Assembly (NCBI GenBank): GCA_963726695.1
Contig: CAVSDE010000006.1
Span: 245,209 to 309,208, forward strand
DNA from: an uncultured Acidimicrobiales bacterium
Lineage (GTDB): Bacteria > Actinomycetota > Acidimicrobiia > Acidimicrobiales > DATKAS01
Direction: 5' to 3'
DNA: 64,000 bases
The position numbers and the translations under genes are program-made. Below are positions 20,580-64,000 of this stretch, piece by piece. The notes beneath the pieces are model-generated. The model did not search any database. It had not been told where the DNA came from and saw nothing but the letters and a program-made list of their open reading frames with translations. Position 1 is the stretch's first letter. Each line of letters opens with the position of its first letter.

Positions 20580-21345
20580 TTGGCCGGAGTGAGCGAGGCG
20601 AAGGGCAAGTCCTTCGGCGAAGAGGGCGGACGCCTCGACTACGGCACCTACCTCGACATCGAGACGTTGCTCTCGGCGCAGCACCGGCGCACCGAAGCGC
20701 ACGACGAGCTGCTGTTCATCACGGTCCACCAGGTGTACGAGCTCTGGTTCCAGCAGCTCCTGTTCGAGCTCGAGGGCGCGGGACGCGATGCTCGCCCACG
20801 ACATCCCGGCCACCCGCCACCTCTTCCGCCGCGTCCGCGTCATCGAACGGCTGCTCATCGAGCAGATCGACGTGCTCGAGACGATGACGCCGCAAGACTT
20901 CATGGTCTTTCGCTCCGAGCTCGAGCCCGCGAGCGGCTTCCAGTCGGTGCAGTTCCGCGAGATCGAGTTCTTGAGCGGACTCAAGGATCCCCGTTACCTC
21001 GAGCGGGTGCACACGACTGACGCGGAGCGCGCTCGGCTCGCGCGCCGTCTGGCCGAGCCCTCGCTCTGGGACGCGTACCTCTCGTTGCTCGAGCACCACG
21101 GCAACCCCGATCTCACGGAGGTGCTGCTCGACCGGGAGAGGTACGGGCCGCTGTTCGAGCTCTCCGAAGACCTGCTCGACCACGACCAGGCGTTCGCGAT
21201 CTGGCGGGTACGGCACGTGACGATGGTGGAGCGCCAGATCGGCGGGCGACCGGGCACGGGCGGCTCGACCGGTGCCGCCTACCTCCGCAGCACGCTCGAC
21301 CGTCGGTTCTTTCCGGAGCTGTGGGCCGTGCGTGACCGTCTCTAG
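20580..21345 (+). CDS. kynA: Tryptophan 2,3-dioxygenase, one frame break near 20778
   Basis: LDYGTYLDIETLLSAQHRRTEAHDELLFITVHQVYELWFQQLLFELE, then (next frame) ...FRSELEPASGFQSVQFREIEFL...WRVRHVTMVERQIGGRPGTGGSTGAAYL. Confidence 0.8.
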
Positions 21346-23751: not shown

Positions 23752-26700
23752 ATGGCCGACGGTTCCTCCGACACCCCGCGACGACCCGCAGGGGTAGGCC
23801 GGATTCCGCCCCACAACCTCGATGCCGAGGCCTCGCTCCTCGGCGCGATGCTGCTTTCCGCGGGCGCCGTCGCGAGCGCGATCGAGGGCGTCTCCCGTGA
23901 CGACTTCTACAAGCCGGCGCACGGCCACATCTTCGAAGCCATCACGTCGCTCTACGGAGCGGGCGAGCCCATCGATCCGGTCACGGTGGCAGAGGAGCTG
24001 CGGCGAGCGAACCTGCTCGACGCGATTGGTGGCTCGACGGTGCTGGTCGACCTCCAGGCGACCACCCCGGCGATCTCCAACGCCGGTGGCTATGCGCACA
24101 TCATCGAGGAGCACGCGCTCCTGCGCCGGCTCATCGGCGTGGCCGGCGAGATCGCGGAGCTCGGCTACAGCCTCCCCGACGACGTGACGAAGGCCGTCGA
24201 TCGGGCCGAGGCGATGGTCTACGACGTCGCCCAGCGGCGCGTCGCCGACACGGTCGCTCCGATCCACGATCTCCTCGAGGTGAGCCTCAGTCGGCTCGAG
24301 CAGCTCTACGACCGCGGCGAGGCGATCACCGGGTTGCCGACCGGGTACAACGATCTCGACGAGCTGCTCTCCGGTCTGCAGCCGTCGTCGCTCGTGGTCG
24401 TGGGCGCTCGGCCGAGCACGGGGAAGTGCGTCGTGTGGGACACGCCGATCCTCGATCCCGTCACCGGCGCGATGCGCACGGCCGCCGAGGTGCACCGCTT
24501 GGGTCTCGGCGGGCACCCCGTCTCGGTGGCCTCGTTGGCGGCCGACGGCTCGCTGAGCGTGGTCGAACCAGAGGCGTTCGTCGATGACGGCATCAAGCCG
24601 GTGTTCCGCGTGCGCACGCGGTCGGGTCGAGAGGTGCGCACGACGATCAGTCATCCGTTCCTCACGGAGGAGGGGTGGCGCCCGCTCGGCGACCTGGGCA
24701 TCGGCGTCAGGGTGGCAGTGCCGCACGCGCTCCCGTTCTTCGGTCACGACCGGCTGTCTGCGGCCGAGGTCGTGCTGCTCGCCCATCTCGTGGGTCACGG
24801 TCATCGTGTGGCCGGCGGCGCGGTCTTCGCCAACTCGGCGCCGGCGGTGGTCGCGGATCTCGTGGTGCATGCCGATGCGCAGGGTGTGCGGGCGGTGCCC
24901 CTCCCGCGCGGCCACGTCGCGTACCGTGTCGTGGCCAAGACCCGTGCCCGCGATCGCATCGAGGTCGTCGCCGCGCGCCATGGCCTACTCGGCGCATGGG
25001 TCGATCGGGGGCTTCCCGACAGCGTGTTCCGCCTTCCGCAGGATCAGCTCGCGCTGTTCCTCGGTCGTCTGTTCGCCGTCGCCGGGTCGGCCCGAGCGGC
25101 CGCGAGGGGCACGGGCGCGATCCGGTACATCACGACCTCGCGCCCCTTGGCGCACGGTGTGCAGCACCTCCTCCTGCGCTTCGCGATCGCGTCGGCTGTT
25201 CGCGAGAAGCGCGTGTGCGAGGACGGCGTCACGCACGACCTCTTCGAGGTCGAGGTCAGCGATGCCCCGGACATCCGTACCTTTTGCGATCACCTCGAGG
25301 TGCTCGGCCAGGAGCGGACGTTCGACGTGCTGTCTCGACGCGCCGGCGGCCGGGGTACCGGGCTCGCGGTCGGGTGCGCGGGCGAAGTGGCCGCGGGGTC
25401 GTGCCTCCGAAGCGCTCCTAGGTGGCCACGTGCACCATCCGGTCGGGCAAGTGCTCGAGCGCGCACCCGACCTCGCGCGCATTGCAGACGAGCGCGCTGT
25501 GGGACGAGATCGTCGAGATCGAATACGACGGCATGGATCAGGTGTACGACCTGACCGTTCCCGTGACGCACAACTTCGTCGCGGCGGACGTCTTCGTGCA
25601 CAACACCGCGTTCGCGCTCGGCATGGCGGCCCATGCGGCGCTCGAAGCGCAACGGCCCGTGCTCTTCTTCTCGCTCGAGATGGGCCACCTCGAGCTGACG
25701 CAGCGCCTGCTTTCCGCGGAGGCGCGAGTCGACTCGACGCGGTTGCGCAACGGCCGCCTCGTCGAGTCCGACTGGTCGAAGATCGGCCATGCGATCGGTC
25801 GCCTCGCCAACGCGCCGCTCTGGATCGACGAGAACCCGAGCGTCACCGTCATGGAGATCAGGGCCAAAGCTCGTCGCTTGAAGAGCCGTGTGGGCGACCT
25901 CGGCCTGGTCGTCGTCGACTACCTCCAGCTCATGGGAGGACGAGGCGGGGCAGAGAGCCGCCAGGTCGAGGTGTCAGAGATCAGCCGCGGGCTCAAGATC
26001 CTCGCCCGTGAGCTCGAGACGCCGGTCGTCGCCTTGTCACAGCTGTCCCGAGCCCTCGAGCTGCGAGCCGAGAAGCGCCCGATGCTCGCCGACCTTCGCG
26101 AAAGCGGATGCCTCACGGCCGACACGTTGATCACGCGGGCGGACACCGGGATGCGCGTCCCCATCGGCGAGCTCGCAGCGAGCGGTGAGCGGGACATCCT
26201 CGTGTGGACGCTCGACGAAGACCTCAAGATTGTTCCCGGGGTGATGACGCACGCCTTCTCGAGTGGCGCGAAGCCAGTGTTCGAGGTCACTCTCGCTTCT
26301 GGGCGGAGCGTCCGGGCCTCCGGCAACCACCCATTCCTTCGCTTCGACGGTTGGTCGCGAGCCGACGAGCTTCAGCCGGGGGATCGTGTTGCGGTTGCCG
26401 ACGAAGTGTCCCCCGACCCCTGGCATTCTGGGGCCGAAAACCGGCCAAATGTGGCCGTGTTTTCGCCCCAGAAGCTCCAAGTCGCGTGGGACTCGGTGCG
26501 TGCGGTCGAGCTCGTTGGAGCCGAAGAGGTGTTCGACGCGACGGTTCCCGGCACGCACAACTTCCTGGCCAACGGTGTCGTCGTGCACAACAGCATCGAG
26601 CAGGATGCCGACGTCGTGATCTTCCTGTACCGCGACGAGCTGCACAACCCTGACTCGCCCGACATCGGCACCGCAGAGATCCTCGTCGCGAAGCACCGTA

Positions 26701-26777
26701 ACGGACCGACGGGAAAGGTGAAGCTCGCGTTCCTGAGCCAGTACACGCGGTTCGCGAACATGGCGCGCGGAGTGTGA
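23752..26777 (+). CDS. dnaB: Replicative DNA helicase DnaB interrupted by two inteins (frame breaks inside intein 1)
   Basis: Exteins: IPPHNLDAEASLLGAMLLS... GARPSTGK|TAFALGMAAH (Walker A restored on splicing) ...LADLRESG|SIEQDADVVIFLYRDE...AKHRNGPTG. Confidence 0.9.
24427..25604 (+). mobile_element. DnaB intein 1 in the P-loop (GK^T site), with degenerate LAGLIDADG endonuclease region
   Basis: Starts CVVWDTPILDP and ends VFVHN followed by Thr. Length is 1178 nt (not a multiple of 3). The frame changes 1->2 (~25330-25400) and 2->0 (~25492). The LAGLIDADG-like blocks read LLAHLVGHGH and FLGRLFAVAGSA, so both acidic residues are replaced. Confidence 0.85.
26109..26591 (+). mobile_element. DnaB intein 2, 161-aa mini-intein at the RESG^S site (same site as the M. 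tuberculosis DnaB intein)
   Basis: CLTADTLITRADTGMRVPIGEL ... SGNHPFL ... VFDATVPGTHNFLANGVVVHN followed by SIEQDAD. No endonuclease domain. In frame (483 nt). Confidence 0.9.
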
Positions 26778-49956: not shown

Positions 49957-52191
49957 TGGCGGCCTCCTGCTCGCCCCGCTCGATCGCCTCGAGCAAGTGC
50001 ATCGAGATGTCGGCGACGCGGACTTCGCTCTCGTCGAGCCCCGCAGCCTTCACCCCGTCATCCAACATGATGTAACAGAAGGGGCACGCCGTCGCGACTC
50101 TTGTGGCGCCGGTGGCGATCGCTTCTTCGCGCGCGCTCGTCGTTCACCTTCTTGCCGATGCTCTCTTCCATCCACATGCGGGCACCGCCGGCACCGCAGC
50201 ACATCCCCCGGGTGCCGTTGCGACCCATCTCGACGATCTCGATGCCCTTCAGTGAACCGATCACGTTGCGGGGCGCGAGGTACACGTCGTTGTGGCGGCC
50301 GAGGTAGCACGAGTCGTGGTAGGTCACTCGCTCCTCGAGCCGGGCGTTCGAGAGGTCGAGGCGGCCGGTCTCGATGCACCACTCGAGCAGCTGGCTGTGG
50401 TGCAGCGACCTCGTAGTGACCGCCGAGCTGCGGGTATTCGTTGAGCAGCGTGTTGAAGCAGTGCGGGCATTGCGTGACGATCTTCTTCACGCCCATGCCG
50501 TTCAGCACTTCGACGTTCTGCATCGCCAGCATCTGGAAGAGGTACTCGTTGCCCGAGCGGCGAGCGGGATCGCCGGTGCACAGCTCGGACGGCCCGAGGA
50601 TCGCGAAGTCGATGCCCGCCCGTCGAAGCAGCTTCGCCACCGCTTGCGTGACCTTGCGGTTCTTGTCGTCGAACGAGCCCGCACAACCGACCCAGTAGAG
50701 GTACTCGTGCTCGAGCGCCTCGGAGCCGTCGACGATCACCACATCGTCGAGATCCTTCGCCCAGTCGGCCCGCTCGCCTTGGTTCATCCCCCACGGGTTG
50801 CTCTGGTTCTCCATCGACCGGTACACGTTGCCGAGCTCGGTCGGGAAGTCGGATTCCATGAGCGACAGGTAGCGCCGCATGTCGAGGATCTTGTCGAGGA
50901 TCTCGATGTTCACCGGGCAGATCTCGTCACACGCCTTGCACGACGTGCACGACCAGATCTCCTCAGATGTGATGCGCTCGAACAGCGAGTCGGCGGTGAT
51001 CGTGATCTCGGGGACGACACCGATCGGCGGTGACACTGTGGGGCGGCCCGTCGCCGCCATCACCTCGCCGGTCTTCAGCACGATCTCGCGCGGGTCGAGC
51101 GGCTTGCCCGTCGCGTGCGCCGGACAGACCGAGGTGCACCGACCACACATCGTGCACGCGTCGGTGTCGAGCAGCTGCTTCCAGGTGAAGTCCTCGATCG
51201 TCGTCGCACCGAACGTCTCGAGCTCGGTCTCGGTGAGGTTCGGCATCGCTCGCATCGCGCCCTTCGGGCGATCGCGATCGCGCAGGTACATGTTCAACGG
51301 TGACGTGAACATGTGGCGCAGCATCGTGATGGGCAGCACCAACAGGAAGGTGAGGAACGCAGCCACGTGCACGCACCACAGCGCCTGGTGCCAGGTGTTG
51401 AGCGTTGACGGCGCGACCGAGTCGATGAGCGCCGAAAGGGGATAGCCGACGAACGACCACTTCTCGAAGGCCGGTCTGCCCTCGAGCGCGATGCGCACCA
51501 TCTCGGTGGCGAAGCCGGTGAGCGCGAGGACGAAGAACATCCCGAGGATCACTGCGTGCTCGGGCTTGGTCTTGATGCGGATGCGGTAGGGCCGCTGCAC
51601 GTACCGGCGCACCAACGCCCAGGTGATGCCACCGAGGAAGAGCAGCCCCGCGGCATCGCCGACTGCGGAGAACCCTTGGTAGGTGCCGCCGTGCAGGAAC
51701 TTCGCGCTCTCGGGCATCTGGTGGTCGATCTCGAGCACCGTCGTGACGCCGAAGAGGATGAGGAAGCCGAAGTAGATCATCGAGTGCATGACGCCGGCCG
51801 CGGGATCGCGGAGGAGCGTCTGCATGTACATGCCGGCGCGGAAGTCACGGAGCCGGCGCCCGATGTTCTTCCTGGTCGTCGCCCTGCGATCCGGTGCGCC
51901 GCGCTCGTAGTTGCGCACTCTCTGGGAGAAGAGCACGCCCGCTGACGCGATGAGCAGCGGCGTGACCACGTAGAAGGCGAGGCGCAGCGGGCTCGGGATG
52001 CCACCGAACACCTCGCGCGAGACCGGCGAGTTGTCGTGGAACTCGAAGATCACGCCGGTGACGCCCGATGCGATGGTGATGAGGGCGAAGGCGAGCCAGA
52101 TCGCCAGCACCACATCGGATGGTCGGAAGCGGCGTGCAGCGACGGCCGCGGGCGAGGTCCGCTCGGTGGTCGTTGTGGACATCACGCGCAA
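49931..52191 (-). CDS. Membrane-bound (Fe-S)-binding reductase, HdrD/GlpC-like with N-terminal NarI-like TM domain (Rv0338c-like), two frame breaks (~50405, ~50130)
   Basis: Five to six TM helices, then [12 protein letters not shown] and [12 protein letters not shown] (2x 4Fe-4S), then CCG motifs YWVGCAGSF...TQCPHCFN and, in other frames, [10 protein letters not shown]...CCGAGG and [11 protein letters not shown]. Confidence 0.8.
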
Positions 52192-52229: not shown

Positions 52230-52655
52230 TCAGCCGTAGTTGGCGCGGTCGAGGTCCCGGATGCGTCCCGCGAGGGTGGCGAGAAGCTTGTGGGCGAGCG
52301 CCGGCACCTGATCGATGACGCCGGCAAAGTTTCGTTGGTCGATGACGAGCACGGTCATGTCAGTGTCCGCGGTGACGGTGGCAGTGCGGGGCCCGCGGTC
52401 GAGCAGCGAGAGCTCGCCGATGACCGCACCCGGTCCGAGGGTCGTGATCTTGCGACCGTTGCGCTTCACCGCGGCGGTGCCGTCGATGACGATGAACGCC
52501 TCACGCCCCTGCTGGCCTTGATCGACCAGCGTGGTGCCGGCTTTCACAGCGATCTCGTCAGACGCCTTGGCGATCTTCTGGAGATCCTTCGTCGAGCAGG
52601 TCGCGAACAGGGGAACCCGCGCCAGATGATCGAGATACGCCTGCCTGATAGCCAT
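52230..52655 (-). CDS. Cyclic-nucleotide-binding domain protein (stand-alone)
   Basis: Intact 141 aa. FIVIDGTAAVKRNGRKITTLGPGAVIGELSLLDRGPRTATVTA is a canonical cNMP phosphate-binding cassette. Confidence 0.88.
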   Translation of the reverse strand: MAIRQAYLDHLARVPLFATCSTKDLQKIAKASDEIAVKAGTTLVDQGQQGREAFIVIDGTAAVKRNGRKITTLGPGAVIGELSLLDRGPRTATVTADTDMTVLVIDQRNFAGVIDQVPALAHKLLATLAGRIRDLDRANYG

Positions 52656-52715: not shown

Positions 52716-52731
52716 GAAACAGTCGCGAAAC
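52716..52731 (+). promoter_or_regulatory. Direct repeat GAAAC-n6-GAAAC upstream of the small OmpR-type regulator gene
   Basis: cGAAACagtcgcGAAACg, with 11-nt phasing as for OmpR/GlnR-type sites (GlnR b-site consensus GaAAc). It lies in the divergent intergenic region 52656-52750. Confidence 0.25.
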
Positions 52732-52750: not shown

Positions 52751-53272
52751 GTGGGGATGGACGTCACCTTGGTGCGCTGGCCCTCCGAACAGCCCCGTCG
52801 CGATCGCCTCGCGGAGGAGGGGCTTCCGCGGCTCCTCCTCATCGACGCGTCCGAGGTCCCGCCGGTGGTGGTCGATCTTCTCGAGGACTGGATCAGGGTG
52901 CCGGCCGACGACGCCGACATCCGCGCTCGAGTCGCGACCCTTCAGACGCGGTTCGATGCGGTCGGATCAGTCGCGCCGGTGATCGACGACGACGGCGTCG
53001 TCCGCGTCGGCGCGGCGTGGGTGTCACTGCCGCCGGTCGAAGCTCGCATCACGAATGCCCTCCTCGACCGCTTCGGCGCGGTCGTGAGCCGGGACGCGCT
53101 CGGTCGCAGCGGGTGGCCCGACGGCGCGCCAGGCCGCAACGCCCTCGACGTCCACGTGCTGCGGCTCCGCCGACGGCTTGCTCCCCTCGGGCTGGTGATC
53201 CGCACGGTGAGGTCCCGCGGGTACCTGCTCGAGGCGTCAGATTTCGTTCAGCCCAGCGCGCGCGAGGCGTAA
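52751..53272 (+). CDS. OmpR/PhoB-type winged-helix DNA-binding protein with truncated, non-canonical N-terminal domain
   Basis: C-terminal LPPVEARITNALLDRFGAVVSRDAL...LDVHVLRLRRRLAPLGLVIRTVRSRGYLL. The N-terminal ~70 aa lack receiver motifs. The ATG at 52757 is an alternative start. Confidence 0.75.
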   Translation: MGMDVTLVRWPSEQPRRDRLAEEGLPRLLLIDASEVPPVVVDLLEDWIRVPADDADIRARVATLQTRFDAVGSVAPVIDDDGVVRVGAAWVSLPPVEARITNALLDRFGAVVSRDALGRSGWPDGAPGRNALDVHVLRLRRRLAPLGLVIRTVRSRGYLLEASDFVQPSAREA

Positions 53273-53290
53273 CTCCGAGCCAACACAGCC

Positions 53291-53328
53291 GTAACGGCGA
53301 TCGAACAGAGCCGTAACGCTCGGCACAC
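53291..53328 (+). promoter_or_regulatory. Candidate GlnR box upstream of amt (GTAAC-n6-cGAAC-n6-GTAAC-n6-CACAC)
   Basis: Both a-sites match gTnAc exactly, and both b-sites are degenerate versus GaAAc. It is embedded in a 10-nt direct repeat AGCCGTAACG (53287 and 53309, 22-nt phasing). About 67 nt from the amt ATG. Confidence 0.35.
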
Positions 53329-53394
53329 GGCTGCGAAATCGCCCGTCCGTAGGTTCACACGGAGGTCAGTTTCACGGCATCGGGAGGCGCCAAC

Positions 53395-54894
53395 ATGCGA
53401 TTGCGGAAGTACGGACTCGCGAGCTTGGGGGTGGTGGGAGCGATGGTGCTCCTCACTGCGGCCCCCGCGTTTGCCCAAGACGCCGGGCAGACGCCGGCAC
53501 CCGATCTCTCGATCCCCATCAACTTGCTGTGGGTCGTGATCGGAGCGGTGCTCGTCATCTTCATGCAAGCGGGCTTCGCGCTCGTCGAGACGGGGTTCTG
53601 CCGAGCGAAGCACGCCAGCCACGTCGTGAGCACGAACTTCGCCGTCTTCGGCCTGGGGTTCGTGGCGTACTTCCTTGTCGGCTACACGTTCATGTTCGGC
53701 GGGTACTCGTTTGCACCGATGGGCTACACGACGCCTATTGGGAGCGCGTGGATCGGCAGTGGCAACTGGGTCTTCCTCTGGAAGGGCGACTTCGCCCTCG
53801 GCGGCAGCGGCGCTTACACCCCAGCAGTCATGGCGTTCTTCCTCTACATGGTGGCGTTCATGGACACCACGGCCACGATCCCGACGGGAGCGATGGCTGA
53901 GCGTTGGAAGTGGAATGCCTTCGTCGGGTGGGGTCTGTTCTGCGGCGCCGTCTACTACCCGCTCTTCGGGGCATGGACGTGGGGCGGCGGCTGGCTCGCA
54001 TCGCTCGGCAAGAGCGCACACCTCGGCTTCGGCTACACGGACTTCGCAGGTTCTGGCGTCGTCCACGCGATGGGCGGTGCAGCTGCGCTCGCCGGCGCGA
54101 TCGTGCTCGGGCCGCGGCTCGGGAAGTACGGCAAGGACGGCAAGCCGCGGGCACTCGGGCCGCACCACATCCCGATGGCCATGCTCGGCACGTTCATCCT
54201 TCTGTTCGGTTGGTTCGGCTTCAACGCCGCTTCGACCTTGTCCGCGGTCGACATCCGTTTCGCCGTCGTCGCCACGAACACCGCGCTCGCTGCGGCATTC
54301 GGCGCGGTCGTCGGCATGTTCTGGGTCATGGGACGCACGGGCAAGCCCGATCCCGGGATGATGGCCAACGGCATGCTCGCGGGCTTGGTGGCGATCACCG
54401 CCCCGTGCGCCTTCGTGCAGCCGTGGGCCGCGGCCGTCATCGGGGCGATCGCAGGTGCGATCGTCGTCGAGTCGGTGTGGTTCTGGGAGCGCAAGGCCAA
54501 GGTCGACGACCCTGTGGGCGCGATCTCCGTGCACGGCGTGTGCGGTGTGTTCGGCGTGCTTTCGGTCGGGATCTTCGCTGACGGAACGTACGGCCAGGGC
54601 TGGAACGGCACCCCCTACGCTGACGCGGCTCATGGCGTCACCGGCGTGCTCTATGGCGGCGAGGGCTGGGGTCAGCTCGGCGCACAAGCCATCGGGGCAC
54701 TCGTGATCATGTTTGTGATGGGTGGGGTCGCGTTCGCCTTCTTCAAGATCCAGAACGCGATCATGAAGGGTGGCATCCGGCCCACGGAAGAGGTCGAGCT
54801 CCAGGGCATGGACATCCCCGAGATGGGTGTGCTCGCCTACGAGTTCGAGCTCGTGCCCGACAACACCCTGGAGCCGGCCGAGACCGTCTCCTAG
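53395..54894 (+). CDS. amt: Ammonium transporter (Amt family) with cleavable signal peptide
   Basis: Intact 499 aa. LWVVIGAVLVIFMQAGFALVETG, DFAGSGVVHAMGG, VHGVCGVFGVL. Confidence 0.93.
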   Translation: MRLRKYGLASLGVVGAMVLLTAAPAFAQDAGQTPAPDLSIPINLLWVVIGAVLVIFMQAGFALVETGFCRAKHASHVVSTNFAVFGLGFVAYFLVGYTFMFGGYSFAPMGYTTPIGSAWIGSGNWVFLWKGDFALGGSGAYTPAVMAFFLYMVAFMDTTATIPTGAMAERWKWNAFVGWGLFCGAVYYPLFGAWTWGGGWLASLGKSAHLGFGYTDFAGSGVVHAMGGAAALAGAIVLGPRLGKYGKDGKPRALGPHHIPMAMLGTFILLFGWFGFNAASTLSAVDIRFAVVATNTALAAAFGAVVGMFWVMGRTGKPDPGMMANGMLAGLVAITAPCAFVQPWAAAVIGAIAGAIVVESVWFWERKAKVDDPVGAISVHGVCGVFGVLSVGIFADGTYGQGWNGTPYADAAHGVTGVLYGGEGWGQLGAQAIGALVIMFVMGGVAFAFFKIQNAIMKGGIRPTEEVELQGMDIPEMGVLAYEFELVPDNTLEPAETVS

Positions 54895-54918
54895 TCCTCT
54901 GTCCCCAAGTCATCTCTA

Positions 54919-54950
54919 GGGTGGCCGGCGCCTCCGGGTGCCGGCCACCC
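54919..54950 (+). terminator. GC-rich hairpin between amt and the antiporter-GlnD fusion gene
   Basis: GGGTGGCCGGC-(10 nt)-GCCGGCCACCC, a perfect 11-bp stem. There is no U-tract, so it may be an attenuator or RNA-stability element rather than a full terminator. Confidence 0.5.
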
Positions 54951-54995
54951 TCATGTCCCCTGAGGCCTCGGAGCCACCGCTTTGGAAGTCCACCG

Positions 54996-57704
54996 ATGAG
55001 CGTCACCGATGCGCTGCTCGACATCCTGATCGTGCTCGTCGCGGCGAAGGTCGCCGCGGAGCTCATGGAGCGCATCAACGTCCCCGCGGTGGTCGGGGAG
55101 ATCCTCGTCGGGATCCTGATCGGGCCGTCGGCGCTCAACCTCGTCAGCAACAGCGACGTGTTGCGGGTGCTCGGCGAGATCGGTGTCATCCTCCTGCTGC
55201 TCGAGGTCGGATCCGAGCTGGAGCTGAGTGAGCTCGCCGCCGTGGGTCGCGCGTCGATGTCGGTCGCGACCGTCGGCGTGATCGTGCCGTTCATCGGCGG
55301 CGCCGTGTACGGCACCGCGATCGGGATGACCGGGAAGGAGGCGATCTTCGTCGGCGCCGCCCTCACCGCGACATCGGTGGGCATCACCGCGAGAGTGCTC
55401 GGCGACCTCAAGGCTCTGACCATGGTCGAGTCGCGCACTGTGCTCGGCGCCGCGGTCGCCGACGATGTCATCGGCCTCGTCATCCTCACGGTCGTCGTGC
55501 GGCTCGCGACCTCGGGCTCGGTGTCGGTGCTCGGCGTGCTGTGGATCATCTTCGTCGCGGTGGCGTTCCTCGCGGTGACCGCCTTCGTGGGTGTGCGGTA
55601 CGTGCCCGCGCTGTTCGACTGGATCGCCCGCCACAGCCGATCGGCAGGCACGCTCGTCGCGCTCGCGCTCGCCTTCACACTCGCGATCGCCGAGCTCGCG
55701 AACGTGGCCAAGCTCGCCCCGATCGTCGGCGCCTTCGTTGCCGGCCTCGCGCTCGGACGAAGCAACTCGTCCGATCGCATCCGCCGCGAGCTGCAGCCGG
55801 TCGGACACCTGTTGATCCCGGTCTTCTTCCTTGGGATCGGCATCGACGTCGACGTCGACCAGTTCCTCAAGCCGTCGGTGCTCGGTCTCGCCGCGGTGCT
55901 CTTCGTGGTCGCAGTCGCAGGCAAGCTGGCCTCGGCCGCGGGGATGATCGGCTCGCCTGGCGACAAGCTCCTCGTGGGGATCGGGATGATCCCTCGCGGC
56001 GAGGTCGGCCTCATCTTCGCCACCATCGGGCTGAGCCAAGCCATCATCGGCCAGCGCGACTACGCCTCGATCCTGCTCGTCGTCCTGCTCACCACGTTGG
56101 TGACTCCTCCCGTGCTGCGATGGCGACTCGAGCGACTTCGTGCCGGCTCCGCGGTCGGGGTGGGACCACAAGCGCCGAGGCCCGAGGGTGGGTGGCTCAC
56201 GCTCGTCCCCGGGAGGGGATCGTCGAGCATCATCGAGCTCGCCGCGGTGCCGCCCATCGGTGACGCACTGGAAGTCGCCCTGCAGGCCGCACTGATGCTC
56301 GACGAGGAGCACCGGCCCGGCGAACAGCTCGTCGGGTGGCTCGGCCAGCTGCCGCCGACGCCGTTGCGATTCTCCCGCAGCGCGCGCGAGCTCCTCTTCG
56401 AGCTCCTCGCGACGGGACGTCCGAGGTCGTGGCGCTTCCTTCAGATCACGGGTGTGCTCGACCGAGCGCTTCCCGAGCTCGGCGACGCGATCGAGCGCAG
56501 GCAGCCGTCGGCGCTCGACCTCGATCCGTTCGGCGCGCTGCACTGGGCGACGCTCGACGCAGTGCACCGCGAGCTGCAGGCGTGGGCGACGCGGGGGCAG
56601 CCAGCGCTCGCGCACCCCGAGTGGGTCGAGCTCGCCGCGCTCGTCCTCGACGCCGCAGGCGGATCCGATCCGCCCGTCTTGCTCGCCCGGCGCGTCATGC
56701 AGCGACTCGACCTCGGTGCGGCACCGGAACAGGCGGTGGCGGCGCTCGTGGCCGACATCGGGCTCTTGCGGCCCGCGGCCCTGCGCCCTGACGGGCTCGC
56801 GCAGGAGGCCGTGCTCCAGCTCGCGGCCCACCTCGGATCGCTCGAGCAAGCGAGAGGGCTCTACATCCTCACGTTGTCATCCGAGGATCTAGGAACGATC
56901 GAGCGCACGCGCGTCGACACGTTGCTCGGCCTGATCGAGGCCGCCCTCGCCCATCCCGAGCTCACCAGTCGCGCCGCGACGAACACGATCGAGCAGCGCC
57001 GAAACGCGGCCTCCCGTCTCACCGACGACCGGGCCGCCGCGGCTCGTCTCGCCACCGCGCCCCGCGCCTACGTCCTCTCCCAGACCCCAGAGGCGTTGGC
57101 ACGACAGGCCGCGCTCTGCGAGCCGCCGATCTCCGGAGACGCGGTGCGAGCGGCCGTCTCGCCCGACGCTCCGCGCGGGTGGCGCGTGGAGATCGTCGCC
57201 TCGGACCGCATCGGTCTGCTGTCTCGTGAGGCCGCGGCGCTGAGCGACCTGGGCCTCGACATCGTCGACGCCGCAGTCTGCACATGGCCCGACGGCACCG
57301 TGCTGACGAGCTTCGGGGTCCTGAGGGGTGAGCCTCCGCTCGCCGAGGAGGTCCGCGAGCGCACCCGGGCCGCGATCGATCGAGAGCTCTCGACGGCACC
57401 GATCGAGGACGTCGTCGTGGCCTTCGACGACGTCGGCTCGCCGTGGCACACGATCTGCACGATCGAGGCAACGGATCGTCCGGGACTGTTGCACGCGATC
57501 ACCGCGGCGTTCGCCGCAGCGGCGGCGAGTGTGCACTCTGGTCGCATCGTGACGCGCGACGGCGCTGTCGTCGACACGTTCGAGCTGACCGACGCGACCG
57601 GCGCCAAGCTCGGCGACCCGATCAAGGAGCAGATCGGAGATCTGCTGCGGTCCGGGGTGCGGGCTCGCAAGCCTCGACGCTTCGGGCTGTCCCGCAGCCG
57701 CTGA
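54996..57704 (+). CDS. Fusion protein: CPA2 cation/proton antiporter domain + GlnD-like C-terminal region (degenerate HD region + two ACT domains), lacking the nucleotidyltransferase domain
   Basis: aa 1-~385: Na_H_exchanger pattern (LLDILIVLVAAKVAAELMERINVPAVVGEILVGILIGPS...). The rest: GVLDRALPELG segment, then ACT1 WRVEIVASDRIGLLSREAAALSDLGLDIVDAAV and ACT2 WHTICTIEATDRPGLLHAITAAF...VVDTFELTD, as in PII uridylyl/adenylyl-transferase C-termini. Intact single frame. Confidence 0.8.
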   Translation: MSVTDALLDILIVLVAAKVAAELMERINVPAVVGEILVGILIGPSALNLVSNSDVLRVLGEIGVILLLLEVGSELELSELAAVGRASMSVATVGVIVPFIGGAVYGTAIGMTGKEAIFVGAALTATSVGITARVLGDLKALTMVESRTVLGAAVADDVIGLVILTVVVRLATSGSVSVLGVLWIIFVAVAFLAVTAFVGVRYVPALFDWIARHSRSAGTLVALALAFTLAIAELANVAKLAPIVGAFVAGLALGRSNSSDRIRRELQPVGHLLIPVFFLGIGIDVDVDQFLKPSVLGLAAVLFVVAVAGKLASAAGMIGSPGDKLLVGIGMIPRGEVGLIFATIGLSQAIIGQRDYASILLVVLLTTLVTPPVLRWRLERLRAGSAVGVGPQAPRPEGGWLTLVPGRGSSSIIELAAVPPIGDALEVALQAALMLDEEHRPGEQLVGWLGQLPPTPLRFSRSARELLFELLATGRPRSWRFLQITGVLDRALPELGDAIERRQPSALDLDPFGALHWATLDAVHRELQAWATRGQPALAHPEWVELAALVLDAAGGSDPPVLLARRVMQRLDLGAAPEQAVAALVADIGLLRPAALRPDGLAQEAVLQLAAHLGSLEQARGLYILTLSSEDLGTIERTRVDTLLGLIEAALAHPELTSRAATNTIEQRRNAASRLTDDRAAAARLATAPRAYVLSQTPEALARQAALCEPPISGDAVRAAVSPDAPRGWRVEIVASDRIGLLSREAAALSDLGLDIVDAAVCTWPDGTVLTSFGVLRGEPPLAEEVRERTRAAIDRELSTAPIEDVVVAFDDVGSPWHTICTIEATDRPGLLHAITAAFAAAAASVHSGRIVTRDGAVVDTFELTDATGAKLGDPIKEQIGDLLRSGVRARKPRRFGLSRSR

Positions 57705-57774: not shown

Positions 57775-58602
57775 GTGGAGGTGGTACACAAGCACGACGA
57801 CTTTGGCGGGCGGAGGTTGGTACCGGTGGCGTCGTGGATGGACCGAGCAACGCGCGCGGCGGAGGTGCTCCGAAGGGGGCGGGTTCTGGTCGTCTGCCCG
57901 TCGGATGAGCAGGCCGGCGCGATCGGGCACGCGCTCTCCGACCTCGACCTGATCCCCGTGCTCGCGTTCGATGAAGACAGCGCGCGACGTACGGCCGGGG
58001 GAGTCGCGTGCAACGTCGCCGTCCTCGACACGAGCGTCGCCAGCGGGTCACCCCTTTCCCTGATCCGCGACATCAACGATGAGGTCGGAGCGGGGGTGCT
58101 CGTCCTCGGACCCACCGACGAACCCGCGGACCGTCTGTTCGACGCGGGAGCGTTCCTCCTCGGATCGGCGGACTGGTCGGGGATGCACGTCGCGGCACGG
58201 ATCTCGACTCGGCTGCGCGTGCGGCCGCCGGTCGAAAACCGATCGACGCTCGTGTGGGGACCGCTCGAGCTCGATCCGGCGATGCACCTCTCGTGGTGGG
58301 ACCGCACGCCGCTCGCGATCACCCCCACCGAGTTCAAGGTGCTCGTCGCCCTCATCTTGGCGAAGGGCGCCGTCGTCTCGAAGTCTGACCTTCAATCTCA
58401 GCTTTGGGGCACGAAGTCCGCTCTCGACGACAAGAGGCTCGAGGCTCATGTACGCCGGCTGCGGGCCAAGCTCGGAGAGCTGAACCGTTCACCGTTCGTG
58501 TTGACCGTTCGAGGCCAGGGATACCGGCTCGCGGACCGCCGGGTGACACGGCGAGCGGTCGTCGTCGACCGTCGTGGATCGTCACGCATCGTGGCTGTCT
58601 GA
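57775..58602 (+). CDS. OmpR-family (GlnR-like) regulator: atypical receiver + winged helix
   Basis: The likely start is MDRATRAAEVL at 57838. The receiver-like half lacks the DD pocket (VLVVCPSDEQ). The wHTH half reads TPTEFKVLVALILAKGAVVSKSDLQSQLWG...LEAHVRRLRAKLG...TVRGQGYRL. Confidence 0.75.
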   Translation: MEVVHKHDDFGGRRLVPVASWMDRATRAAEVLRRGRVLVVCPSDEQAGAIGHALSDLDLIPVLAFDEDSARRTAGGVACNVAVLDTSVASGSPLSLIRDINDEVGAGVLVLGPTDEPADRLFDAGAFLLGSADWSGMHVAARISTRLRVRPPVENRSTLVWGPLELDPAMHLSWWDRTPLAITPTEFKVLVALILAKGAVVSKSDLQSQLWGTKSALDDKRLEAHVRRLRAKLGELNRSPFVLTVRGQGYRLADRRVTRRAVVVDRRGSSRIVAV

Positions 58603-58630: not shown

Positions 58631-58918
58631 CGCTTCACCCTCGCGTCGGCCCTTGTTTTCCCAGGATTCTCCTGGTTTTGTCCGGTTTGTGAAGAGAAGC
58701 ACGAGCAGTGGGGGAAGCGTGGCTGAATCGTCGCCTTCCCGTAGTTCCACCACGCAGAGCGAAGGAGTCAGATGGCGAGTGGCGTAGTGGAGGCGCGGGA
58801 CCTCGCGGGCAGTTCGGGCGGTTGCTCGGGTTTTCTCCTACGTCGCTTGGTGGAGGGCCACCGTGTGGCGGTGGCGGGATGCGATTGAAAGGAAACGCGT
58901 ACGAGCAGATCTCGCCAC

Positions 58919-61673
58919 TTGCGGCGGATCTTGGCGGCGGGCGTGGTTGCCAGCCTCTCCATCACTTGGGGAGCCGGCATCGCTTTCGCCAACACAGACC
59001 CATCCATCAGTCAAGACAACGGAGTGAGCGCGTCGCAGAACGGTTGCGGTCCGGAACCGGTGTCTGCGGGCCTCAACGAACCCGCACCTCAACCTGAACC
59101 TGGGTGCGGCAGTGCCATCGGGAACACCGGCGCGAACGGGCAATTCGCCGGTCCGCAGTTCAACGGAGCCGGGCAAGCTCACGTCGGGATCGCCAATGGC
59201 GACTCGTCTGACGCGTTTGCAGCCGGCCTCTTGGTCGCGGTTGCGCTCGGCGGCGACGCACTCGCCGGCGGAAGCAACGTCTCGACGGTCGACAACAACC
59301 TCGAGTCGTCCGGTGGCGGCCCGATCACCAATGACATGACAACCGGCAACGCGGTAGGTGGCAACGCCTTGGGCCTCGCCGGAAGCCAGATCAACACCAA
59401 CAGCGGTGACGCGATCACCGTCGGCATCGGTGACGGCGCCGACGTGATCCACCAGCACAACGGCGCCTATGTGTCCGCCGATGACAACGCCGCGCTCGGC
59501 GAACTCAGGTGCCAACGTCCAGGCGACCGGCGGCCAGTACATCGGCGTCGGCCAGCTGGCTCTCGAGGGTGCGCAGGGAACTCCGGCGCTCGCTCTGAGC
59601 CTCGGCCTCGGCATCGCCGTTGGCGGCGACGCGACCGCGTACGCGACCAACACGAGTGGTCATACCGGCAACTTCGGCAACTACCAGAACATCGAGAACA
59701 CGATGACGACGGGTGACGCCGTCGCCTTCAACTCGGTGCAGGTCGGCACGCCGGTCTCTGGGACCATCGCCCAGCAGCCGTTCGCGCAGTCGAACGAGAA
59801 CAGCGGAAACGCGTACACGGGCGAGGCTTCGCTCAGCTTCGTGGGCTTCGCCGGCTCGTTCATCGGCCAGCACAACGACCTGATCGTCGACCCGTCCTTC
59901 AACACCGCGGTGGCCAACAGCGGCGCCAACCTGCAGGCCAGCGGCCCGCAGCTCAGTGGCACGCTGCAACTCGCCGGCGCGGGCGCCGGAAGTGGCTGGG
60001 CGGCATCGCTCGGCATCATCGCTCTCGCGTTCAGCGGTGACGCTGTCGCCGGTGCGGTGAATCAGAGTGACAGCGCCAACGACCAGATCGTGAGCAACGA
60101 TCTGCACACGGGTGACGCGCTCGCACAGAACTACACGAGCGTGATCGCAACCCAGTCGAACACCAACAGCGGCAACGCTGGATCGTTGCAGGCGCTCGCC
60201 GTCTTCGGCTTCGGCATCGGCGGGATCATCCAGACGAACTGCGCGGACATCGTGGCGAACTACAACGTCGCCGCGGCGAACACCGGGCTCAATGGCCAGA
60301 TCGCCGGCTTCCAGGGCAACGGCACCGTCCAAGGTGCGGGCGCGCTGGCAGGTAGCGGCTGGGCCGGAACGCTCGGCGGGCTCGCGCTAGCCGTCGCTGG
60401 TGACTCGTCCGCTGGGGCGGTCAACGGAGCACTCAGCAACAACGAGAGCGACGTCAGCAATGTGATGGTCACTGGCAACGCTGGCGCGTCGAACGTCCTG
60501 AACGTCGATCTCACGCAATCCAACGAGAACTCTGGTTGGGCAGCGGGAGCGGCAATCCTCGACGTCGTCGCGATCGGTGCCGGGGGCATCGTGCAGTCCA
60601 ACGACGCGTACACCGACTCGAGCGAGAACGTGGCGCTGGCCAACAGCGGCGCGAACGTCCAGGGCACCCTGGGCCAGGGCAACCTGACCCTTCAGGGCGC
60701 GGGCTCGGGTAGCTGGGGCGGCGGCGCGATCTCGCTCGGCGTGCTCGCCGGCGCGGTCGGCGGCGACGCATCGGCGTGGGCGGTCAACACGGCGGACAGC
60801 ACAAACAGCCAGAAGGTCCACAATGACCTGACGACCGGTGGTGCGGACGCTCGCAACGTGACCGTCATCGACCTCACCCAGACCAACGCCAATGGCGGTG
60901 TGGACGAGTTCAACGGTGCAGCCGCGGGGATCGCCGCGATCGCATTTGCCGGCGTGGGTGTCGGATTCATCTCTCAGAGCAACTACGCCGAGATCTACAG
61001 CGATGGCAACTTCGCTGGTTCCAACACCGGTGCCAACGCGGAGTTCAGCGGCCCGCAGGTCAACATCACGGGTCAGCTGGCGCTCGCGGGCGCACAGGGT
61101 GGCGGGGCGCTCGGCCTTGCCTTGTTGGGCGCGGGAGCGGTCGGCGGCGACGCCGATGTCGCTGCGTCGAACACGGCGACGAGCTCGAACTGGCAGCTGG
61201 TGTGCAACGACCTGATCACGGGCGTCGCGGTTGCAGTGAACAAGTTGGGCGTCACTGCACAGCAGACGAACGGGAACACGGGCGACGCGGCGGGCCTAGT
61301 GCTCGGCGCAGCTCCTCTGGTCTACGCCAGCTCCATCTCGCAGTCGAACAGCCTCAGCGTCGGGCAAGACGGCTCGAACGCGGTGGCCAACACCGGTCTC
61401 AACTCGCAGTCCTCTGGTGCGCAGGTGAACGTGGCGCTTCAGGGCTCGGCGGCTGAGGGCGATGCGGGCCAGGCTGGGGCTGCCGCGCTTCTCGGCAGCG
61501 TTGCTGTCGACGGCGCTGCGACCGTTGCGGTCGGAGACAACTCGTCCAGCATCAACTCCACCGAGGTGCACAACACGATGGAGACCGGCAACGCGACGGC
61601 ACTCAACCAGGTGACCGTCGACGTCACGCAGGACAACCACAACGAGGGCGACTCGATCTCGGTCGGCCTCTAG
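58919..61673 (+). CDS. Large secreted beta-strand-repeat protein A (~918 aa after repairing one frame break near 59498), seven ~95-140-aa degenerate repeats
   Basis: Signal peptide MRRILAAGVVASLSITWGAGIAFA|NTD (TTG start, uncertain). Joins track ORFs 58919-59716 and 59469-61673 at ...YVSADDNAAL|ANSGANVQ... Repeats are anchored by A-N-[ST]-G-x-N-x-Q, G-S-G-W-A, T-G-[DN]-A-x-A-x-N and T-Q-x-N-x-N-S-G-N-A. Confidence 0.7.
59117..61670 (+). repeat. Protein-level tandem repeat array (7 units) inside repeat protein A
   Basis: Units begin at IGNTGANGQ, ANSGANVQ, ANSGANLQ, ANTGLNGQ, ANSGANVQ, SNTGANAE and ANTGLNSQ. Hand-counted unit lengths are ~138, 121, 121, ~126, ~123 and 95 aa for units 2-7. The DNA copies are highly diverged. 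Confidence 0.75.
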
Positions 61674-61688
61674 GCAGTCGGACCAGAT

Positions 61689-61712
61689 GGGGGAGGGCGA
61701 GCGCCCTCCCCC
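61689..61712 (+). terminator. Intrinsic terminator after repeat protein A
   Basis: GGGGGAGGGC-gagc-GCCCTCCCCC (perfect 10-bp stem, 4-nt loop) followed by the pyrimidine/T-rich aggtCCCCTTTTCCTCTTCTCTTCTCTC. Confidence 0.65.
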
Positions 61713-61780
61713 AGGTCCCCTTTTCCTCTTCTCTTCTCTCAGCAGTTGGCGGCATCCAGCAGAGGGCAGGCGGCAACAAG

Positions 61781-64000
61781 ATGAGCGCGAATCGACAACG
61801 CACGGCGGGGTTTCGCCGGTTTGTTGCAGCCTCTTTGGCTGCGGTGGTCCTCTGCTTCGCAGTGGGCGTGCCCGTCGCGGGCGCGCAGACCGACCCAACC
61901 GATCCTCCCGATACGACGGCAGCGCCCGACACGACGGCAGCGCCCGACACGACGGCAGCGCCCGACACGACGGCAGCGCCCGACACCACGCTTCCTCCCG
62001 AGGACACGACCGCTGCGGCGGACACCTCGGGAGCCGGCACGACGGCGGCGACGACGACCGCCGCCCCGACGACCACGGCCGCACCCTCGACCACCGCCGA
62101 CTCTTCGTCGACCACCGACGCTTCTGACCCCGGCGCATCTACATCGGATGCGCCTGCAGCGCGTTCGACCAACGCGGCGGAGAACGCGGCGGTGTCGACC
62201 GCGAGCGCCGCTGACACGTCGGGTGGTTGCGGCGGATCGTCGCAATCCTCTTCTCAGTCGTCCGTGAACGCCGCGGAGCAGCACAGCGTCGCGAACGTGT
62301 GCTCGAGCAACAACGCCTCGGGCAACTCGGGGTCGAACGCCTCGGTGGGTGCGATCGCGGGAGCGACGACCGGTGGCGCGTCGACCTCCACCGGGACGAG
62401 CAGCTCCTCGTCGACCAATGACGGCGACGCCAAGGCGATCGGCGTCAGCGAGAACGGCAACATCCTGCAGACGGTCTCTGTGCGCGCCGACGCCAGCAGC
62501 CAGGTCGACATCGTGCAGATCGCGCTGGTGATCAACATCGGCTTCGGAGTGGCCAACACGAGCGGCAACGGCGCCGTCGGAGTGACGCCAGGGCTCCTCG
62601 CCGGACACATGGCCGCGCTCGGGTATGCGTCGGAGGTGACCGGAGCGGCCCTCGCTGTCGGCACGCAGGCGACAACCCGCATCCTTCAAGCGGCGGTCGT
62701 GCAGACCAAGAACGGCGACGACGCGAACAGCGTCGAGAACGCGTTGGTCATCAACCTCGGTGATGGCACCGCGAACAGCGGGCTGAACCGGATCATCGGT
62801 GTGCTCTCGCAGAACGGAGCCGACTACGGCCTCGGTGGTGCCACGGGCACCGCGTCTGTCGCCTCCGGCGATGCGAACGCGATCGGGAACGCCTCCAACA
62901 CGATCATCAAGCAGAACGCCAGTGCGAACGCGAGCGAGGGCGGCTTCATCGTCATCACCCAGCGCGCGGTGGTGTTCAACCTGGGCGCCGCGATCGCGAA
63001 CACCGGCTTCAACAGCGCGACGGGTGTCGGCGCCATGGGCCTCACCGACTCGCAGCTCGCCGCCTTGGTCTCGCTCTACCAGGTCCTGAACGCACTGCTC
63101 GAGGCTGGAGGATGGGCGCTGCCGCCGGACGGCGATCCGAGCGGCGGTGTCGGCGACGCGGTCGGTGATGCGTCCGTGCAGACCGGCGACGCGACGGCAC
63201 TCGGTGTGAACACCGGCACGAGCATCACGCAAAACGTCGACGCGACAGCCGTGGGCGGCACGATCCACTCGTCGCAAGACGCGCTGGTCGCGAATGTCGG
63301 CCTCGGCGTCGCCAACACCGGGGGCAACGTCGCCGCCGGTGTCGCGACCGGGTCGACGGGCGGTGTGAACTCCGACGCCATCGCCACCCTTGCGGACTAC
63401 CTCAAGGCACTGTCGGGCGGCACTGTGTCGCCGAACGGGACGGCGGACGTCGCCGGCCTGTTCGACTTCGGAGGCCTGATTGCACAGCTGACCGGGCACG
63501 CGGAGGCCACCGATCAGGTGATCGACTCCGCGCCGAGTGATCTCATCGGGCCACCACAGGATCCTGCCGCTCCGCAGACGAAGCGCACCCGGATTCGCCA
63601 GGTCGTCGGGATGCTCACGTTCTCGTTCTCCTCGGCGAACGGCGTGGACAAGACCGAGACCCAGGCGCACATCAGGCACAACGACACTGAGACCGACGAC
63701 ATCGGGGTCACCGTCGCCAACGGCTATTCGACGCCGGTGACCAACCACGCCGCAGTGGACGTGACCGGCGATTCTTCCTCCACGAGTGACAGCACGGGGG
63801 AGCCGCCCAATCCGGACGGCTTCGTCGCCGACGTCACCGGATCGGCCACGATGCAGACCGGCGACGTCGTCGCAGGCAACATCGACAACACCAGGGTCTG
63901 CCAGGTGCACAACACCGATCCCGCGCAGTGCACCGCCGTGAACCGGTGGATCATCCTCGGAGGCAACCAGCCCCCAATCCCGCAGCCGAAGCCGAAGACG
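61781..64000 (+). CDS. Large secreted beta-strand-repeat protein B, 3'-partial (open to the window end; not in the supplied ORF track)
   Basis: Hand translation of the frame starting at ATG 61781 is open for 740 codons. Signal peptide MSANRQRTAGFRRFVAASLAAVVLCFAVGVPVAGA|QTD, then 4x DTTAAP plus a T/A/P/S-rich linker. This is followed by ~60-aa units such as ASVASGDANAIGNASNTIIKQNASANASEGGFIVITQRAVVFNLGAAIANTGFNSATGV. Confidence 0.7.
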   Translation, partial: MSANRQRTAGFRRFVAASLAAVVLCFAVGVPVAGAQTDPTDPPDTTAAPDTTAAPDTTAAPDTTAAPDTTLPPEDTTAAADTSGAGTTAATTTAAPTTTAAPSTTADSSSTTDASDPGASTSDAPAARSTNAAENAAVSTASAADTSGGCGGSSQSSSQSSVNAAEQHSVANVCSSNNASGNSGSNASVGAIAGATTGGASTSTGTSSSSSTNDGDAKAIGVSENGNILQTVSVRADASSQVDIVQIALVINIGFGVANTSGNGAVGVTPGLLAGHMAALGYASEVTGAALAVGTQATTRILQAAVVQTKNGDDANSVENALVINLGDGTANSGLNRIIGVLSQNGADYGLGGATGTASVASGDANAIGNASNTIIKQNASANASEGGFIVITQRAVVFNLGAAIANTGFNSATGVGAMGLTDSQLAALVSLYQVLNALLEAGGWALPPDGDPSGGVGDAVGDASVQTGDATALGVNTGTSITQNVDATAVGGTIHSSQDALVANVGLGVANTGGNVAAGVATGSTGGVNSDAIATLADYLKALSGGTVSPNGTADVAGLFDFGGLIAQLTGHAEATDQVIDSAPSDLIGPPQDPAAPQTKRTRIRQVVGMLTFSFSSANGVDKTETQAHIRHNDTETDDIGVTVANGYSTPVTNHAAVDVTGDSSSTSDSTGEPPNPDGFVADVTGSATMQTGDVVAGNIDNTRVCQVHNTDPAQCTAVNRWIILGGNQPPIPQPKPKT
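61910..61981 (+). repeat. 4 x 18-bp perfect/near-perfect tandem repeat encoding DTTAAP
   Basis: gatacgacggcagcgccc followed by three identical gacacgacggcagcgccc units. Confidence 0.9.

Follow-up and report, generated by a model that had tools for sequence, protein, structure and literature searches.

GlnD is the enzyme that passes the glutamine signal to the regulatory protein PII. In actinomycetes its gene adjoins amtB-glnK (PMC3087709 and general knowledge), a pair in which the gene for an ammonium channel is coupled to the gene for a cytoplasmic nitrogen-sensing module. The fusion of a cytoplasmic ligand sensor to a CPA transporter is likewise known as a principle: KefC and KefB (8bxg) are glutathione-gated K+/H+ exchangers whose CPA2 domain carries a C-terminal cytoplasmic ligand-binding gate, and in SOS1 and SLC9C1, both of which came up as fold matches in Foldseek, a fused cytoplasmic small-molecule sensor exerts allosteric control over the transporter. 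Cytoplasmic regulatory domains of this sort can bind cyclic nucleotides or be ACT-like, as is the C2 domain of the transporter MetNI. Here we analyse a 64-kb stretch of DNA ("the window") from an uncultured Acidimicrobiales bacterium, part of the 539.6-kb contig CAVSDE010000006.1, in which the ammonium channel gene amt is followed by a gene, hereafter the fusion, that encodes a NapA-type CPA2 antiporter joined to a C-terminal region derived from GlnD (Table 1). We propose, with moderate confidence, that the product may be a ligand-regulated antiporter of the NapA type whose GlnD-remnant sensor tunes it to nitrogen status beside a GlnK-less Amt1.

After the 3' end of amt, ~100 bp lead to the next plus-strand open reading frame (ORF), which is open from 54921 to 57704; we take the ATG at 54996 as its start since the N-terminus read from there, MSVTDALLDIL..., agrees with the N-termini of all homologues. 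The 902-aa product comprises an antiporter domain (aa 5-382), a central region with a pseudo-HD domain (aa ~400-710) and two ACT domains (ACT1, aa ~717-776; ACT2, aa ~807-865). An AlphaFold model of the full-length protein has a mean predicted local distance difference test score (pLDDT) of 82.5 and a predicted template-modelling score (pTM) of 0.55. The original prediction, made from the letters alone, had read 54996-57704 as one intact frame, and this single ORF bears it out. An assembly join or a hidden frameshift could in principle have run an ordinary antiporter gene together with another gene, as other ORFs of the window seem truncated or frame-broken (dnaB at 23752-26777; short PAD_porph and Trp-dioxygenase fragments) and amt is frameshifted in a close relative (L001). 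Such an artefact is, however, exceedingly improbable: a word-indexed protein search returned more than 120 full-length homologues of 880-960 aa (52-95% identity) with the same collinear architecture, from independent samples and assemblers; the junction at aa 376-400 is conserved among them; and the G+C content of third codon positions is uniformly high along the whole ORF (0.88; the window is 68% G+C and holds mycothiol-related genes, both pointing to an actinobacterium). We reject the artefact on the strength of the collinear homologues and the conserved junction.

The fusion family is large, uniform in length and widespread. Its members are named in their sources merely as "cation:proton antiporter" or "KefB / predicted amino acid-binding ACT domain protein", and those with an organism label come from metagenome-assembled genomes (MAGs) of Acidimicrobiales or Acidimicrobiia, or from MAGs named to phylum (Actinomycetota) only. 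With the tail alone as query, an exhaustive HMMER scan of representatives clustered at 50% identity gave 201 clusters at E<=1e-30, the best 150 of these 201 being fusion-length proteins or fragments; together with the more than 120 homologues, this answers the question of spread that had been attached to the prediction and leaves virtually no room for an assembly join or hidden frame break. Across GTDB species genomes the full fusion occurs at about 30 loci, nearly all in Acidimicrobiia-type MAGs, and the remaining matches are plain ~400-aa NapA-like genes from many phyla. The carriers are thus Acidimicrobiia from uncultured lineages seen through metagenomes, a class common in soil, freshwater and activated sludge.

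The similarity of the C-terminal half to GlnD is evident at the level of both profiles and alignments. Residues 454-879 align to positions 369-840 of the 850 in the NCBIfam GlnD profile (TIGR01693, E=7.8e-28), with a score of 97.2 bits, below the equivalog cut-off of 519.4. As reference we took the genuine GlnD encoded at L027, a related locus, together with its homologues, and a set of 5.8 billion proteins was searched with an Acidimicrobiia GlnD. In an hhalign comparison of 30 fusions with 20 true GlnDs the match has a probability of 100 and E=8.2e-46, and fusion columns 402-884 correspond to GlnD columns 324-849 of 859. The breakpoint lies just where GlnD_UR_UTase stops (residue 339 of the GlnD ORF at L027; ~290 in the shorter P0270 numbering); because it falls there the tail is, by alignment, GlnD minus both transferase domains. 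A Pfam scan of the fusion gave no match to NTP_transf, GlnD_UR_UTase or HD (PF01966), and the same tool finds both transferase domains in the L027 GlnD. What is shared with GlnD is everything that follows GlnD_UR_UTase (aa ~400-885), i.e. the central helices with the GVLxRxLPE segment, the HD fold and the two ACT domains with their DRxGLL motifs; the strings GVLDRALPE, SDRIGLLSRE, TDRPGLLHAI, DTFELTD and DLDPFGALHWATLDAV are all present in the fusion.

The HD site has degenerated in this shared region and the ACT ligand loops have been kept. True GlnDs have an invariant site made of H421, H428, H467-D468, H509 and D550 (P0270 numbering), and across the fusion family four of the five metal ligands of the H...HD...H...D motif are replaced, the Asp of the HD pair alone being retained: H421, H428, H467, H509 and D550 of GlnD correspond in the fusion to D/x, L, L551, D587 and S/A. 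Segment by segment, the fusion has LDLDP...AL for the YHRxTVDxH of GlnD, LAALVLDAAGG for LLHDIGKG, LVAD for VRxH and LTLS/A for LTRAD; H520, the sole His in the HD region of the window protein, is out of register, and most homologues have Arg at its position. In the ACT domains, each matched by Pfam ACT and both spanned by the hhalign alignment, D737, R738, G740, L741 and L742 of the ACT1 loop and D827, G830, L831 and L832 of the ACT2 loop are invariant or nearly so in 30 homologues. The original prediction of a ~515-aa GlnD-like C-terminal part with no nucleotidyltransferase domain, a degenerate HD signature and two DRxGLL-bearing ACT domains has therefore stood up in each of its four parts, the homology beginning only at GlnD column 324.

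In a confident AlphaFold2 model of the tail (pLDDT 87.8, pTM 0.77), a helical domain leads into two beta-alpha-beta-beta-alpha-beta units. The nearest PDB neighbours of the ACT pair in Foldseek are amino-acid-binding double-ACT regulators, namely aspartate kinase, IlvA (threonine deaminase) and GcvR-like proteins, and the helical part gave weak PDB matches only, to body domains of class-II nucleotidyltransferases (E~1e-3). Neither by sequence nor with Foldseek did the PDB copy searched yield a solved GlnD. By these comparisons the tail is a pseudo-enzyme with its sensor part retained, and it is predicted to be unable to modify or demodify PII because the transferase domains are gone and the HD site is dead. 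The fusion resembles GlnD in its setting as well, lying beside amt and, in relatives, beside PII genes; it differs in lacking both transferase domains, in its replaced HD ligands and in being joined to a 13-TM transporter, and on the three defining features tested, none of which it shows, it is not a GlnD.

The N-terminal half belongs to the NapA clade of CPA2 by every available sequence test. Pfam Na_H_Exchanger (PF00999) spans aa 17-376 (208.9 bits, the cut-off being 26.2; E=1.4e-61), and the best match among solved structures is the electrogenic Na+/H+ antiporter NapA of Thermus thermophilus (TtNapA; 4bwz, phmmer E=8.9e-66, 39% identity, collinear over aa 5-382; 5bz2, also E~1e-65), to which the AlphaFold model aligns in Foldseek with a TM-score of 0.87 (5bz2). 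The ion-site residues A125-T126-S127-V128, D156-D157, K310 and R334/E336 are invariant in 30 homologues; the ATSV/DD/K motif equals that of TtNapA residue for residue, T126, S127, D156, D157, K305 and R331/E333 of TtNapA being the equivalents of the fusion's residues (K305 corresponding to K310). TtNapA differs in being a stand-alone protein of ~390 aa with no cytoplasmic regulatory domain, to which the fusion adds ~520 aa. Masrati et al. (PMC6181914) define a CPA motif of eight positions, in which electrogenic CPA2s are marked by Lys at position 8 and by Asp-Asp, on TM5, at positions 6 and 7; a non-polar residue at position 4 marks the Na+-selective clades of CPA2, and K+-selective CPA2s typically have Thr at this TM4 position, where the fusion has Val. 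Because its motif equals that of TtNapA, the fusion is predicted to be electrogenic and Na+-selective, and the transport that it catalyzes is most probably Na+(Li+)/H+ exchange.

The N-terminal half had originally been described as a CPA2/Kef-type antiporter; the Na_H_Exchanger domain and the CPA2 assignment hold, and the Kef-type label does not. In the structure comparison that gave 9e-66 for NapA, KefC reached E=1e-17 only, the KefC and KefB equivalog models score 76.7 and 71 bits where their cut-offs are 752 and 804, and the motif is ATSV/DD rather than the LSST with Q/N-D of Kef. A Pfam scan of the fusion found no TrkA_N/RCK match, and general domain scans found no KTN gene among the neighbours scanned. 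The likeness to Kef lies in the fold and in the general plan of a CPA2 domain with a C-terminal cytoplasmic ligand-binding gate; the KTN/RCK domain of Kef binds glutathione adducts and nucleotides, and Kef itself is K+-selective.

Some CPA2 members, e.g. AmhT of B. pseudofirmus, move NH4+/K+. An AmhT-like valve had been suggested for this locus, in which the antiporter half would export NH4+ (or K+) against H+ at high glutamine and so substitute for the closure of Amt by GlnK in a genome without PII and GlnD. In favor of such a glutamine-gated release valve are the lack of a glnK belonging to the adjoining Amt, the absence of a PII gene from the window (both described below) and the imperfection of the selectivity rules for CPA antiporters (PMC6181914). 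The transport core and the CPA motif are, however, those of the Na+/Li+-selective electrogenic TtNapA and not those of Kef, whose models fall far short of their cut-offs, and the part of the idea that concerns substitution runs into the gene content of the relatives, as follows.

No PII gene was detected within the window when GlnB and GlnK of E. coli served as tblastn queries (best E=0.097), in agreement with what had first been noted, and the same queries find PII at related loci with E=1e-35 to 1e-45; queries with true GlnD matched only the ACT-region tail of the fusion itself. The window therefore does not hold the canonical amtB-glnK-glnD operon, there being no PII gene and no GlnD nucleotidyltransferase domain downstream of amt, an absence that applies to these 64 kb of the contig. 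Among the 34 full-length fusion loci that we compared with the window by tblastn, 7 have PII genes within 8 kb of the fusion. One of them (L027, 7012-17651) holds two tandem PII genes, amt, a divergent fusion, cysS and a complete GlnD, which lies 2.3 kb beyond the fusion and has NTP_transf_2, GlnD_UR_UTase, HD and two ACT domains. Because PII genes and, in L027, a full GlnD stand beside it, the fusion is an additional GlnD paralogue alongside the classical PII/GlnD system in at least some lineages and not a general replacement. The claim that it stands instead of glnK-glnD and that the PII-modifying function has been lost is accordingly not supported, and with relatives that keep both PII and GlnD the release valve would be no substitute in general; we regard that valve as very doubtful.

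An association with amt is evident from the comparison of gene neighborhoods, a check that had been proposed together with the prediction. Of the 34 loci, 29 have adequate flanks, and amt lies within 5 kb of the fusion in 23 of these, 17 of them with a distance below 400 bp; plain NapA-like genes of ~400 aa have amt that near (5 kb) at 1 of 36 loci (Fisher p=4e-11, a value that overstates independence since the compared loci are phylogenetic kin). The linkage is specific and repeated, and it takes three forms, with amt preceding the fusion (as in the window), following it, or lying divergent to it. At 22 of the 23 loci the fusion-adjacent Amt shares 58-87% identity with the window Amt; at the remaining one (L019) the identity is 43%. 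Four loci (L008, L018, L031 and L032) have a second Amt, 31-42% identical to that of the window, and it is this one that adjoins the PII gene; judged by this gene context, the fusion-linked Amt1 orthologue group has no glnK of its own. The arrangement is reminiscent of amtB-glnK(-glnD) in that a channel gene is coupled to the gene of a cytoplasmic nitrogen-sensing module, and GlnR-like repeats lie upstream of the window amt; it differs in that the partner is not PII, the extra amt-glnK of the four loci involving a different Amt paralogue.

The linkage could also be a historical relic of an ancestral amt-glnK-glnD operon, in which case the tail might have a structural or oligomerisation role or might sense something other than nitrogen. 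The position of glnD beside amtB-glnK in actinomycetes makes an origin in situ plausible, all compared loci come from one class, and the amt neighbor has been lost at 6 loci. Adjacency has nevertheless persisted over 38-95% protein identity and through several rearrangements of order and orientation, plain NapA-like genes lie beside amt at just the one locus, the ligand-loop motifs of the ACT domains are invariant or nearly so, and an ACT-less derivative of 590 aa (see below) is still found beside amt. We therefore think a mere relic unlikely.

The second conserved partner is TRC173, a protein with an OmpR-family winged helix that lacks the phospho-acceptor half of a receiver domain, its NCBIfam alignments beginning at response-regulator position ~70. 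A TRC173 homologue adjoins the fusion in 11 of the 34 loci and lies directly upstream of it in 6 of the 6 loci without a nearby amt, usually between leuCD and hydantoinase genes; the window has both partners, in the order TRC173, amt, fusion. These two partners raise the alternative of a membrane-anchored nitrogen signal transducer whose GlnD-derived tail acts on a partner and not on its own transport domain, either by gating Amt1 directly in the manner of GlnK or by tethering the receiver-less TRC173 to the membrane and releasing it, in the way that TnrA is held by AmtB-GlnK in Bacillus. TRC173, having no phospho-acceptor domain, would need another input, and PII is paired with the second Amt in the four loci with two paralogues. 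On the other side, every transport residue of the antiporter is invariant, which argues for a working transporter; the PII-binding nucleotidyltransferase domain of GlnD is absent; the interaction with a partner is predicted from gene neighborhood only; and the adjacent regulators are most simply seen as transcription factors of the operon. On balance a role mainly in signalling to a partner seems improbable.

In the mechanism that we favor, an antiporter regulated through its own tail, the ACT pair would bind an amino-acid nitrogen signal, which by analogy with GlnD may be glutamine. The signal would be relayed through the pseudo-HD scaffold to exert allosteric control over antiport, much as KTN domains gate KefC, and antiport, and hence cytoplasmic pH, Na+ and membrane potential, would be set to nitrogen status and to the ammonium flux through Amt1. 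A physiological reason for such control may be that the pH and charge of the cytoplasm change as ammonium enters and is assimilated, and a Na+/H+ exchanger tuned to nitrogen could offset this. What we infer here is which ion is transported, which ligand is bound and in which direction regulation acts. The earlier proposal that a sensory ACT module has been recruited to an ion transporter by amt survives as far as the fusion and the amt linkage are concerned, and its glutamine stays an analogy drawn from GlnD.

Several points weigh against this mechanism, besides the kinship of the compared loci. Its support consists of sequence, models and gene context, and the inter-domain geometry in the full-length model is uncertain, as its pTM indicates. 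The CPA ion-selectivity motif rule is correlative only, and it is a rationalisation that Na+/H+ exchange should track the nitrogen supply. At six loci the fusion is accompanied by TRC173, and no amt lies within 10 kb. That GlnD binds glutamine through its ACT domains is known from genetics and biochemistry; PDB searches found no ligand-bound GlnD structure, and in some actinobacteria the signal for GlnD may be something other than glutamine.

In the full-text literature searched we found no description of a CPA antiporter with a GlnD or ACT tail, as the original prediction had supposed. MetNI, SOS1 and SLC9C1 differ from the fusion in transporter class or sensor fold, and none of them has a sensor taken from a nitrogen-regulatory enzyme; set against the literature searched, the GlnD-type sensor, its origin in a nitrogen enzyme and the coupling to amt are apparently new.

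Table 1. Coordinates of the features discussed, numbered from the first letter of the window.
Feature	Position	Strand	Description
GAAAC-n6-GAAAC direct repeat	52716..52731	+	~25 bp upstream of TRC173; resembles GlnR/OmpR-type sites
TRC173	52751..53272	+	173 aa, OmpR-family winged helix; Pfam Trans_reg_C, aa 91-160
Pentamer array	53269..53339	+	Upstream of amt: GTAAC, GTAAC, CGAAC, GTAAC, GAAAT
amt	53395..54894	+	499 aa, "Amt1" type, signal peptide; Pfam Ammonium_transp, E=3.5e-102
Hairpin	54919..54950	+	GC-rich, 14-15 bp stem, between amt and fusion; z=-3.1
Fusion gene	54996..57704	+	902 aa: antiporter, linker, GlnD-derived region, two ACT domains, basic tail
Antiporter domain	55008..56141	+	NapA-type CPA2; ion-site residues invariant in 30 homologues
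Cytoplasmic GlnD-derived module	56181..57650	+	Degenerate HD region and two DRxGLL ACT domains
TRC275	57775..58602	+	Orphan OmpR/PhoB-family response regulator, immediately downstream of fusion

The locus appears, from the repeats upstream of its genes, to be under an OmpR/GlnR-type regulator. The GAAAC-n6-GAAAC repeat is the sole match in the window even at one mismatch, and it is kept in L001, L003 and L007 while the intergenic flanks diverge. The pentamers upstream of amt begin at 53269, 53291, 53302, 53313 and 53335, with spacings of 22, 11, 11 and 22 bp that keep an 11-bp phase; the last four are conserved in L001 and those at 53291, 53313 and 53335 in L006, the one at 53269 in neither. 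The sites of S. venezuelae GlnR include GAAACACGGGCGAAAC and GTnAC-n6-GTnAC (PMC3087709), and GAAAC-n6-GAAAC has the same form as those listed there. The exact GlnR box GTNAC-N6-GNAAC has no match in the window, the observed sites being variants.

TRC275 is kept downstream of the fusion in the closest relative (L001) only and is a possible nitrogen regulator. Neither it nor TRC173 is closer to the presumed GlnR chains 8hih, 8hig and 8hml than to PhoB; PhoB and MtrA match TRC275 as well as or better than these presumed GlnR chains, and a GlnR orthologue is thus not established.

The hairpin between amt and the fusion recurs with the same sequence in L001 (~9948-9983) and L006 (~7895-7926) and with a different sequence but the same structure in L012 (~9913-9952) and L017 (~9923-9957); it is found in every amt-then-fusion locus examined, with a 14-18 bp stem, a tetraloop and no U tract. 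It is probably a partial terminator/attenuator, or a stabiliser, that sets the ratio of amt to fusion expression, and its conservation suggests graded co-transcription of the two genes. Terminator-like sites follow TRC275 at 58661 and 58806. An Rfam scan of 52.0-59.6 kb gave chance-level matches only.

Several further observations concern the neighborhood of the fusion and its relatives. Three freshwater-type loci (L033, 1425-3197; L034, 9947-11719; L036, 9218-10984) encode 590-aa relatives with the same antiporter (about 54% identity) and a ~200-aa tail without ACT domains that aligns weakly to the pseudo-HD region; each precedes an amt-glnK-amt-glnK array, and their shape suggests a truncated offshoot of the fusion family. 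In L002 (15746-17164) and L005 (15864-17162) a gene for an NhaA-type Na+/H+ antiporter lies two genes downstream of fusion-amt, a second Na+/H+ exchanger of the same cluster. Divergent from TRC173, on the minus strand of the window, are genes for a 141-aa stand-alone cyclic-nucleotide-binding protein (52230-52655) and a 713-aa membrane CCG/4Fe-4S/NarI-like oxidoreductase (50050-52191), a block kept in L001, L003 and L007. Downstream of TRC275 are two large plus-strand ORFs with no Pfam or NCBIfam match (59469-61673, and 61457-64000, which is open at the end of the window), and L001 has large unannotated genes at the same place.

Elsewhere in the window, the plus-strand dnaB carries intein and LAGLIDADG domains and is divided into two overlapping ORFs in different frames (23752-25554 and 25422-26777), by an assembly frameshift or as a disrupted gene. 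ORFs with partial Pfam matches to PAD_porph (11071-11430), Ppx-GppA (18684-19151), Trp 2,3-dioxygenase (20788-21345) and GH63 (12126-13190) suggest pseudogenes or assembly indel errors.

Together, these results show the sensor half of GlnD, stripped of both catalytic activities, placed on an antiporter, so that this module may be a portable nitrogen sensor. If our reading is true, the fusion would provide a direct, PII-independent link from nitrogen status to ion and pH homeostasis, and it would offer a tractable handle on ligand sensing by GlnD ACT domains, a protein for which the PDB copy searched held no structure. A broader view, which we think rather unlikely, is that Acidimicrobiia have a PII-independent branch of nitrogen control in which a GlnD-derived glutamine sensor on a transporter forms a functional unit with a GlnK-less Amt and involves no covalent modification of PII. 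Such a unit could gate Amt1 or the TRC173 regulator, or it could match cation/proton exchange (conceivably of NH4+) to the uptake of ammonium. The cell would thereby balance ammonium flux, cytoplasmic pH and membrane potential with no covalent change to PII. Further, the locus suggests that some Amt channels form a class whose partner is an antiporter and not GlnK, and an Amt so partnered bears on the long debate over the electrogenicity of Amt proteins and its consequences for pH.

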